From sequence record MZ234040.1: a DNA stretch of 64,000 nucleotides. The stretch is one strand, 5' to 3'. Positions within the stretch are counted from its first letter, which is position 1, and every line of letters starts with the position of its first letter. Below are positions 11,997-30,143 of the stretch, one piece after another. A program made the position numbers and the translations under genes. The notes beneath the pieces were generated by a model, which worked only from the letters and a program-made list of their open reading frames with translations, made no database searches and had not been told where the DNA came from. Source of the DNA: Escherichia phage vB_EcoM-G3G7.

Positions 11997-12902
11997 ATGT
12001 TTAAACGTAAATCTACTGCTGAACTTGCTGCACAAATGGCTAAACTGAATGGCAATAAAGGTTTTTCTTCTGAAGATAAAGGCGAGTGGAAACTGAAACT
12101 CGATAATGCGGGTAACGGTCAAGCAGTAATTCGTTTTCTTCCGTCTAAAAATGATGAACAAGCACCATTCGCAATTCTTGTAAATCACGGTTTCAAGAAA
12201 AATGGTAAATGGTATATTGAAACATGTTCATCTACCCATGGTGATTACGATTCTTGTCCAGTATGTCAGTACATCAGTAAAAATGATCTGTACAACACTG
12301 ACAATAAAGAGTACAGTCTTGTTAAACGTAAAACTTCTTACTGGGCTAATATTCTTGTTGTAAAAGACCCAGCTGCTCCAGAAAATGAAGGTAAAGTATT
12401 TAAATATCGTTTCGGTAAGAAAATCTGGGATAAAATCAACGCGATGATTGCGGTTGATGTTGAAATGGGTGAAACTCCGGTTGATGTAACTTGTCCGTGG
12501 GAAGGTGCTAACTTTGTACTGAAAGTTAAACAAGTTTCTGGTTTTAGTAACTACGACGAATCTAAATTCCTGAATCAATCTGCGATTCCAAACATTGACG
12601 ATGAATCTTTCCAGAAAGAACTGTTCGAACAAATGGTTGACCTTTCTGAAATGACTTCTAAAGATAAATTCAAATCGTTTGAAGAACTGAGCACTAAATT
12701 CGGTCAAGTTATGGGAACTGCTGTGATGGGCGGTGCCGCTGCAACTGCTGCTAAGAAAGCTGATAAAGTTGCTGATGATTTGGATGCATTCAATGTTGAT
12801 GACTTCAATACAAAAACTGAAGATGATTTTATGAGCTCAAGCTCTGGCAGTTCATCTAGTGCTGATGACACGGACCTGGATGACCTTTTGAATGACCTTT
12901 AA
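11997..12902 (+). CDS. 32: single-stranded DNA binding protein gp32
   Basis: 301-aa [54 protein letters not shown]... matches T4 gp32, including the acidic C-terminal tail. Confidence 0.95.
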
Positions 12903-12973: not shown

Positions 12974-13003
12974 GTTTACATCCTTGTTCTTCCATGGTAC
13001 TAT
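12974..13003 (+). promoter_or_regulatory. T4-type early promoter upstream of frd.3
   Basis: GTTTAC at 12974-12979, 18-nt spacer, TACTAT at 12998-13003 with upstream TGG. Confidence 0.55.
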
Positions 13004-13274: not shown

Positions 13275-13319
13275 TTATCAAGGGGCTATTAAGCCCCTAT
13301 TAAAATGAGGAAAATCAAA

Positions 13320-13706
13320 ATGGAAATCGGCAAAAAATACGAGTTAAATCCACACCGTATTAAATCTTTCATTGATATTAGTTCATCAAATGCTAATATG
13401 GTCGGCATCATTCAAGAAAATGGTGGTTGGTTTGAAGTTAAATCAATATCAAGTTTAGATGGCTTTGATTATGTAACCGAAATCATTTGTGCTAATGGTG
13501 AAATCTATAATGATGATGGTATGGGTGATGATTATTTTGAACTTAGTGAAGAAGAGTTTTATTGTTTCCGCGAATATAAAGAACCAACTTCTGAAGAAGA
13601 TGAAGTCAAAGACAAGGTTTCTGGCGTAACAAAAATTCACTGCATTGTTGACGAAAACAATGTAGATGAAATCATTGAACTTTTGCGAAAAACTTTCAAA
13701 AAGTAG
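13320..13706 (+). CDS. frd.2: small early protein Frd.2-like
   Basis: 128-aa ORF MEIGKKYELNPHRIKSF...; GAGG 9 nt upstream of ATG 13320 (alternative ATG at 13305); preceded by hairpin AGGGGCT-ATTA-AGCCCCT. Confidence 0.6.
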   Translation: MEIGKKYELNPHRIKSFIDISSSNANMVGIIQENGGWFEVKSISSLDGFDYVTEIICANGEIYNDDGMGDDYFELSEEEFYCFREYKEPTSEEDEVKDKVSGVTKIHCIVDENNVDEIIELLRKTFKK

Positions 13707-13735
13707 TTTACAGAAGGGTAGTAGTGTGATACTAT
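13706..13735 (+). promoter_or_regulatory. T4-type early promoter
   Basis: GTTTAC at 13706-13711, 18-nt spacer, TACTAT at 13730-13735 with upstream TGTGA. Confidence 0.55.
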
Positions 13736-13765
13736 TACCCTATCAAAACTAATGGAGAAAAGAAA

Positions 13766-13834
13766 ATGTTCGCACCTTATATTATGGCAGCAGTTATGTT
13801 GGTCTGTTTATATCTTTTGATTAAAGCTTGCTAA
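13766..13834 (+). CDS. 22-aa hydrophobic mini-protein (MFAPYIMAAVMLVCLYLLIKAC), possible single-pass membrane peptide
   Basis: GGAG 8 nt upstream of the ATG; own early-type promoter; not in the supplied ORF track (below size cutoff). Confidence 0.4.
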   Translation: MFAPYIMAAVMLVCLYLLIKAC

Positions 13835-13844
13835 GGAGAATAAA

Positions 13845-14087
13845 ATGAGATTACAACGCCAGAGCATCAAAGATTCAGAAGTTAGAGGTAAATGGTATTT
13901 TAATATCATCGGTAAAGATTCTGAGCTTGTTGAAAAAGCTGAACGCCTTTTACGCGATATGGGGTGGGAAGATGAATGTGATGGATGTCCTCTTTATGAA
14001 GATGGAGAAAGCGCGGGATTTTGGATTTACTATTCTGACGTTGAACAGTTTAAAGCTGATTGGAAAATTGTGAAAAAGTCTGTTTAA
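13845..14087 (+). CDS. small early protein (frd.1-region), Cys-containing acidic ORF
   Basis: 80-aa ORF with AAGGAGAATAAAATG ribosome-binding context. Confidence 0.6.
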   Translation: MRLQRQSIKDSEVRGKWYFNIIGKDSELVEKAERLLRDMGWEDECDGCPLYEDGESAGFWIYYSDVEQFKADWKIVKKSV

Positions 14088-14097
14088 GGAAAATAAT

Positions 14098-15126
<1,029 letters not shown>

Positions 15127-15127
<1 letters not shown>

Positions 15128-25994: not shown

Positions 25995-26024
25995 GTTTAC
26001 TTTACGGTAGAGTTGTGATATTAT
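25995..26024 (+). promoter_or_regulatory. T4-type early promoter
   Basis: GTTTAC at 25995-26000, 18-nt spacer, TATTAT at 26019-26024. Confidence 0.55.
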
Positions 26025-26054
26025 AGCTCTACCAAAACAAATGAGGAAATTGAA

Positions 26055-29686: not shown

Positions 29687-29716
29687 GTTTACAGTATGGT
29701 TCCTTTGTGATAGTAT
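29687..29716 (+). promoter_or_regulatory. T4-type early promoter
   Basis: GTTTAC at 29687-29692, 18-nt spacer with TGTGA, TAGTAT at 29711-29716. Confidence 0.55.
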
Positions 29717-29743
29717 TATCTTACACAAACAAAGGAGAATAAA

Positions 29744-30078: not shown

Positions 30079-30108
30079 GTTTACTTTGGTACAGGATATG
30101 ATATTATA
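30079..30108 (+). promoter_or_regulatory. T4-type early promoter
   Basis: GTTTAC at 30079-30084 and TATTAT/ATTATA around 30102-30108. Confidence 0.5.
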
Positions 30109-30143
30109 TACCTGTACCGCAATTAAACATCTTGGAGAATAAA

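Follow-up and report, generated by a model that had tools for sequence, protein, structure and literature searches.

A 22-codon hydrophobic reading frame behind an early promoter of T4-like phages is probably a selected, optional micro-gene

Does a reading frame of only 22 codons, lying directly behind an early promoter of a T4-like phage, encode a protein that selection maintains, or is it a by-product of the leader in which it sits? The gene list of T4, the reference phage, is generally taken to be complete for genes of 26 codons or more. The frame lies in a stretch of 64,000 nucleotides of Escherichia phage vB_EcoM-G3G7 (MZ234040.1), referred to here as the window. A sequence-only reading of this window had proposed that the mini-ORF encodes either a single-pass membrane peptide or a regulatory leader peptide; our analysis supports a selected protein-coding gene and weakens the second proposal. 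The best reading, to which we give a probability of about 0.65, is that the mini-ORF is a real, selected and optional early micro-gene of T-even phages.

By its sequence, the stretch is that of a Tequatrovirus closely related to T4. Over the 251 bases around the mini-ORF, identity is 99.2% with T4 (AF158101.6, reverse strand) and 100% with several T4-like phages; two small ORFs without a T4 counterpart, described below, set the phage apart from T4 itself. The features of the region are as follows.

11997-12902: gp32 gene, in the upstream part of the region, then followed by frd.3
13305-13706: frd.2, with its stop codon at 13704-13706
13707-13735, plus strand: T4-type early (sigma-70) promoter, with -35 TTTACA at 13707-13712, TG at 13727-13728 and -10 TACTAT at 13730-13735
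13715-13741, no strand assigned: inverted repeat GGGTAGTAG / CTATTACCC inside the promoter spacer and -10 region
13754-13764, plus strand: Shine-Dalgarno GGAG (13754-13757) and A-rich spacer of the mini-ORF
13766-13834, plus strand: mini-ORF of 22 codons, product MFAPYIMAAVMLVCLYLLIKAC, with ATG at 13766-13768 and TAA at 13832-13834
13833-13845, plus strand: Shine-Dalgarno region of frd.1, with AAGGAG at 13833-13838 overlapping the mini-ORF stop codon (TAAGGAG)
13845-14087, plus strand: frd.1 (DUF5417), the next cistron, starting 10 nt past the mini-ORF stop
14343-14924: frd
3' of frd: td with its I-TevI intron ORF

The frame reads as it had been described, a hydrophobic ORF of 22 codons with GGAG at a good distance, the spacer before the ATG being 8 nt. 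It could nevertheless be non-functional: a frame left open by chance in AT-rich leader DNA, carried along by a recombining promoter cassette, whose apparent conservation reflects only how recent its copies are. As a measure of chance, we collected all ATG-initiated ORFs of 20-40 codons in the six frames of the 64-kb window (271 in total). Five of them have GGAG 5-10 nt upstream and 0.7% reach a GRAVY of at least 2.0; only the mini-ORF combines both, and it is still the sole candidate in the window when the Shine-Dalgarno motif is relaxed and the GRAVY threshold is set at 1.3 or above. The joint occurrence of a Shine-Dalgarno sequence and such hydrophobicity is thus improbable in the window, which argues against a non-functional frame. 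At 22 codons the mini-ORF would undercut the smallest annotated ORF of T4, whose ORFs range from 26 to 1,289 aa (PMC4122927, Table 1).

The early-type promoter reported ahead of the mini-ORF was recovered by a consensus scan at 13707-13735. It has a 17-nt spacer and fits the T4/PST early-promoter consensus TTTACW-N17-TAYWAT (PMC4122927), and the homologous site is annotated as 'predicted early promoter' in fPS-2 and as 'promoter' in Lutter. Transcription is predicted to start near 13742, ~7 nt past the -10 box; from this start the mRNA leader is 24 nt long. A scan of the interval between frd.2 and the promoter found no terminator-like site. The mini-ORF had been credited with a promoter of its own, and while the promoter is present, it is not private to the mini-ORF, as relatives that lack the ORF have it directly before frd.1. 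The term was therefore an overstatement, since the early promoter belongs to the frd.1 operon.

The inverted repeat gives the promoter region a marked potential to fold as DNA (13700-13770: -8.7 kcal/mol, z = -3.1). Relatives retain the promoter hairpin with different stem sequences, and across the alignment the stems fall in different registers, so that one consensus structure could not be written. Similar hairpins over the spacer and -10 region occur in the window promoters at 25995 (25995-26040) and 30079 (30079-30125). A subset of T4-type early promoters carries a hairpin over the spacer and -10 box, of about -16 kcal/mol as RNA, and the promoters at 12974 and 29687 are without it. The stems vary between promoters and orthologs (GGGTAGTAG/CTATTACCC, GGCTATGGTAG/CTATAGCC, GATAGG../..CCTATC, GGTAGAGCT/AGCTCTACC and GGTACAGGTAT/ATACCTGTACC), and the sequence 3' of them is (A/C)CAAAAC, not a U-tract.

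T4 itself encodes the identical peptide at complement 146018-146083 of AF158101.6, where no feature is annotated. A tblastn search with the peptide matched 200 phage records, 161 of them identical, 35 with one substitution and 4 more divergent, and the same 200 records were returned when the most divergent allele served as query. With the ORF region as query, blastn returned 201 records, one of them an old partial T4 entry starting inside the ORF and the other 200 full-length; there is therefore no decayed copy, and the 22-codon frame is intact in each of the 200 records with this DNA. The frd.2-frd.1 junction is matched, at least in part, by 763 records. The mini-ORF is missing from roughly three quarters of the phages that share this junction and is therefore not needed for growth.

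The only annotated copy among the matches listed is the hypothetical protein ACG-C40_0237a (AFH20202.1 / YP_006986794.1), which is the same gene: it has 22 aa, carries F2L and occupies the same position between the homologs of frd.2 and frd.1. It differs in being the sole annotated copy found; like the T4/window allele, it has no assigned function. An exact look-up in a collection of 15 billion proteins likewise found the ACG-C40 entry, with the T4/window allele absent. The description of the frame as unannotated is thus true of T4 and nearly all relatives, though not of ACG-C40, and the finding is modest in that one earlier listing of the ORF, as a hypothetical protein, already exists. No family match to the peptide came from Pfam or NCBIfam, even at E <= 1 to 10, or from PHROGs, whose lone match at E = 0.5 is noise, and PDB sequences gave no match either. 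Scans of IMG/VR, JGI metagenomes and GTDB genomes with degenerate back-translated patterns returned T4-identical copies only; three further pattern matches from these scans were read and judged to be chance. The gene is an ORFan confined to T-even-type coliphages.

We then consider whether the peptide itself is under selection. The ORF was read in more than 20 loci, which yielded 12 DNA alleles and 8 peptides, all alleles having 22 codons and the same stop. The 12 alleles hold 20 distinct base changes, with 5/2/11 variable sites at the first, second and third codon positions, and the ratio of synonymous to non-synonymous changes is 12:8 in the ORF frame vs 6:14 and 4:16 in the other frames. 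In a neutral simulation that placed the same number of transitions and transversions at random, the mean was 5.96 synonymous changes and 12 were reached in 0.47% of trials (P = 0.0047), a test that rests on just 20 changes in 66 nt of mostly near-identical copies. Pairwise pN/pS is about 0.2-0.3 (T4 vs MN04, 0.13/0.41; T4 vs ESh15, 0.04/0.23).

Individual alleles follow the same pattern. First, ZCEC15 and KFS-EC3 carry four changes in the ORF, all of them silent (Leu12, Val13, Cys14, Tyr16), and in the 66-nt upstream flank 0 changes (ZCEC15) and 1 change (KFS-EC3). Second, MN04 retains Leu15 through a double change, TTA>CTG, and has silent changes at both Cys codons (TGT/TGC). Third, the replacements seen (F2L, A8T/V/I, A9V/T, M11I, L12V and V13I) are conservative, and residues 3-7, 10 and 14-22 are unchanged, leaving M-x-APYIM and CLYLLIKAC invariant. 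Lastly, ESh15 and MN04 retain GGAG or GAGG 7-8 nt before the ATG despite indels in the leader. The numbers are small but consistent, and they indicate that purifying selection has acted on the peptide. Conservation of the frame and its ribosome-binding site in relatives, on which the sequence-only reading had staked its proposal, is borne out by the intact frames, the in-frame excess of silent changes and a Shine-Dalgarno sequence kept as the leader around it diverges.

These data bear directly on the idea of a non-functional frame. It draws some support from the recency of the copies, 143 of the 201 DNA matches being at least 99% identical, and from an ORF that is absent in most relatives, annotated once and backed by no experiment that we found: our search of the literature turned up no Ribo-seq, proteogenomic, mass-spectrometry, tagging or transcription-start report on the mini-ORF. 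The silent-change excess is, however, specific to the ORF frame; T4 and MN04 have diverged by ~20% in nucleotides with no indel or stop and with hydrophobic-for-hydrophobic replacements only; and the Shine-Dalgarno sequence persists within a changing leader. We judge a non-functional frame to be quite unlikely. Two other candidates were rejected. An overlapping ORF at 13752-13820, with a counterpart in MN04, differs in frame between phages and has a neutral substitution pattern; indels in the leader move such alternative-frame ORFs out of register, so that they are not conserved. The possibility of an N-terminal remnant of a longer gene found no support either, since the searches gave no longer homolog and the stop is shared by all copies read.

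How the gene comes and goes is seen from alignment of ORF-carrying with ORF-less relatives, which delimits one segment.

13747-13830, no strand assigned: 84-bp presence/absence segment comprising leader, Shine-Dalgarno and ORF up to the stop

In the ORF-less KAW1E185, fPS-2 and two IMG/VR contigs, this segment is a clean 84-bp alignment gap that runs from directly past the promoter hairpin ('tatcaa') to directly before 'ctaaggag'. Its edges form an imperfect direct repeat, CTAA(T)GGAGAA...AAAATG (CTAATGGAGAAAAGAAAATG vs CTAAGGAGAATAAAATG), which means that leader and ribosome-binding site occur twice. The peptide is also found at a second locus. In the Dhakaviruses MN04, UP19 and Esco_phi_B-01, MFAPYIMI[T/A]VIVICLYLLIKAC is encoded between motB and cef, in an unrelated neighbourhood; ~167 nt comprising promoter, hairpin, leader, ORF and TAAGGAG match the Tequatrovirus cassette at 76% identity, and the flanks are unalignable. 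The cassette is absent from the Dhakaviruses IME341, LQ5 and PSD9, which have a ~90-bp gap at the same motB-cef site. In one Mosigvirus record, ESh15, MLAPYIMAVVMLVCLYLLIKAC occupies the frd.2-frd.1 site and is preceded by a promoter and leader that have diverged. Gain and loss of the gene have probably occurred by recombination in the short promoter, leader and ribosome-binding-site repeats of T4 early regions.

A comparable arrangement has been described in T4-type phages, where promoter-early stem-loop (PeSL) cassettes accompany small ORFans and the stem-loops, which lie just upstream of the promoter, were tested as terminators in RB49/phi1 (Arbiol 2010, PMC2839356; Comeau 2014, PMC4122927). 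Documented crossovers in PeSL shuffling fall between the -10 box and the SD/ATG (PMC2839356). The mini-ORF resembles PeSL cassettes in its early promoter of T4/PST consensus followed by Shine-Dalgarno and ATG, in its gain or loss between close relatives, in its relocation and in the crossover between -10 box and SD/ATG. It differs in two respects. First, its hairpin (13715-13741) lies inside the promoter, not upstream, and lacks a U-tract; one defining feature of PeSLs is therefore missing. Second, the cassette has one flanking promoter only, and its right junction is a short ribosome-binding-site repeat. Apart from these differences, the mini-ORF behaves like a PeSL-borne ORFan.

The same comparisons weigh on the leader-peptide explanation, in which translation of the mini-ORF, or a cis effect of the nascent peptide, sets the output of frd.1 (of cef in Dhakavirus) through termination-reinitiation at TAAGGAG and the free peptide has no job. 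The layout is suggestive: the mini-ORF is the first cistron past the promoter, and in both genomic contexts its stop overlaps the downstream Shine-Dalgarno with the next ATG 10-12 nt away. However, selection acts on the amino-acid sequence and only conservative replacements are seen. Moreover, the RNA from 13742 to 13880 folds worse than all 200 shuffles (z = +2.55), and an unstructured mRNA would favour initiation and leave nothing for a leader peptide to unmask; regulatory codon runs and terminator/antiterminator pairs are likewise absent. ORF-less relatives place the same promoter and the same Shine-Dalgarno directly before frd.1, and the genes that follow the cassette are unrelated to each other, being frd.1 in Tequatrovirus but cef in Dhakavirus. 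The leader-peptide alternative raised by the sequence-only reading has lost ground accordingly, and we consider it quite unlikely.

The signals around the mini-ORF also suggest when it would be expressed. The strong-site consensus for cleavage by RegB is GGAGRAYARAA (PMC3014915). The Shine-Dalgarno region of frd.1, GGAGAATAAAA (13835-13845), is a perfect match, one of four on the plus strand of the 64-kb window (589, 13835, 29734 and 30134), and that of the mini-ORF (13754-13764) agrees at 10 of the 11 positions. With an early promoter and the RegB consensus at both Shine-Dalgarno sequences, expression is likely confined to the first minutes of infection. Two of the other perfect matches, those at 29734 and 30134, are likewise part of Shine-Dalgarno sequences, a short way 3' of the early promoters at 29687 and 30079.

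The predicted product is strongly hydrophobic, with a GRAVY of 2.05 (2.05-2.21 when variants are included). Residues 1-19 form one hydrophobic run whose Hessa dG values, in a simple sum with no position weighting, add up to -0.85 kcal/mol (variants: -1.5 to -1.7), and the sole charged residue is Lys20, near the C-terminus. The calculated monoisotopic mass of the unmodified peptide is 2476.28 Da, to which formylation would add 27.99 Da. The proposed check for a transmembrane helix thus came out in favour of a single-pass peptide, to which the composition is well suited, and a single inner-membrane helix is plausible for a stretch that, at 19 residues, is at the short end for spanning a bilayer. 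According to the positive-inside rule, the positively charged end of a membrane helix faces the cytoplasm, so the C-terminal Lys-Ala-Cys would be cytoplasmic. CLYLLIKAC and APYIM are invariant, whereas mid-helix residues change freely within conservative limits, a contrast that suggests specific contacts, not generic insertion.

Bacteria make inner-membrane micro-proteins of less than 50 aa, among them KdpF, AcrZ, MgtS, CydX and PmrR, which bind and tune larger membrane proteins. The mini-ORF peptide is like them in its predicted form, one hydrophobic helix that has hardly any soluble residues, if any, and is positively charged at one end; it differs in having no sequence relationship to them, in being phage-encoded and predicted to be early, and, at 22 aa, in being shorter than most. 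Among the early accessory products with which T4 acts on its host, some are very small or sit in the membrane, namely Stp (26 aa, from the smallest annotated T4 gene), Imm, Sp and Ac. Of these, Stp is no membrane peptide, and the length of Imm and Sp is 80-100 aa. The mini-ORF peptide shares small size or predicted membrane location with these four, and no sequence similarity.

A peptide of this kind might instead perturb the membrane without a specific partner, as toxin-like peptides such as Ibs, ShoB and TisB do, inserting into the inner membrane, lowering the membrane potential and serving early host shut-off or superinfection exclusion. Type I toxins are of similar length (Ibs 18-19 aa, ShoB 26 aa, TisB 29 aa), and those of the Fst/Ldr group have an A-P motif in the helix. 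The mini-ORF peptide falls in the size and hydrophobicity range of Ibs and ShoB, has Ala-Pro near the N-terminal end of its helix, and its promoter points to immediate-early timing. Unlike these toxins, it matched no toxin family model and has no bacterial copy, as searches of plasmids (tblastn) and 5,426 E. coli genomes (blastn) returned none. For an antisense RNA gene, the sole indication is one weak promoter-like site on the minus strand inside the ORF, from 13810 to 13781 with 9/12 matches, in a region with 17 promoter-like sites vs 9.7 expected by shuffling. The invariant C-terminal half of nine residues and the APYIM motif likewise suggest specific contacts. We regard a toxin-like action as unlikely.

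If the mini-ORF is a selected early micro-gene, its action might be as follows. The early promoter would bring about transcription within the first minutes, with the mini-ORF as first cistron of the frd.1 transcript, and the unstructured leader would allow its efficient translation. Ribosomes terminating at the mini-ORF would probably also feed translation of the next gene, as the stop codon lies inside the downstream Shine-Dalgarno. Expression would be shut off when early promoters close and RegB cleaves the GGAG sites. The whole 22-residue product would form one inner-membrane helix, its N-terminus outside and Lys20-Ala-Cys in the cytoplasm, and would act on a host or phage membrane component. 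Since half of the helix does not vary, a specific helix-helix contact appears likelier than bulk damage to the membrane. The mini-ORF may confer an advantage that depends on host or condition, which would explain its absence in many relatives.

Taken further, the product could be the smallest functional T4 protein: a transmembrane effector, mobile together with its promoter, that binds one specific protein of the host inner membrane and decides the outcome of infection on particular hosts. Candidate partners would include transporters, proteases such as FtsH and the membrane effectors of abortive-infection systems. A host-specific role of this kind would explain both the patchy distribution and the relocation between loci; we put it forward tentatively, as a possibility of rather low probability. 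A conserved 22-codon early gene missing from T4 records would mean that the gene callers used on almost all of these genomes omit even well-signalled micro-genes. The locus also offers a compact test case for the action of phage membrane micro-proteins, for translational coupling at TAAGGAG and for gene movement via early-promoter and ribosome-binding-site repeats, and its genetics is simple, thanks to natural alleles that lack the ORF but share the junction in all other respects.

Several observations concern the neighbouring genes. Frd.2 belongs to a family of its own (PF03197 / PHROG 622) and also matches PHROG 8944, 'goF mRNA metabolism modulator' (E = 2.5e-4), and PHROG 3710, in both cases weakly. 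In Yersinia phage fPS-2, the gene at the frd.1 position (612-737) is annotated with 42 aa vs 80 aa elsewhere and may be a truncated or disrupted frd.1. Between frd.1 and frd, the window has an 81-aa ORF (14098-14343) that lacks a T4 counterpart, belongs to PHROG 3183, gives no Pfam match and is a homolog of ACG-C40_0235. Between frd and td there is a 68-aa ORF (14921-15127), again without a T4 counterpart, which has ATGA-type overlaps with both neighbours. An ar1_247-like gene is optional in the interval from gene 32 to td and is present in AR1 and two other loci. With the two ORFs absent from T4 and this optional gene, the 32-td interval is a small hyperplastic region.
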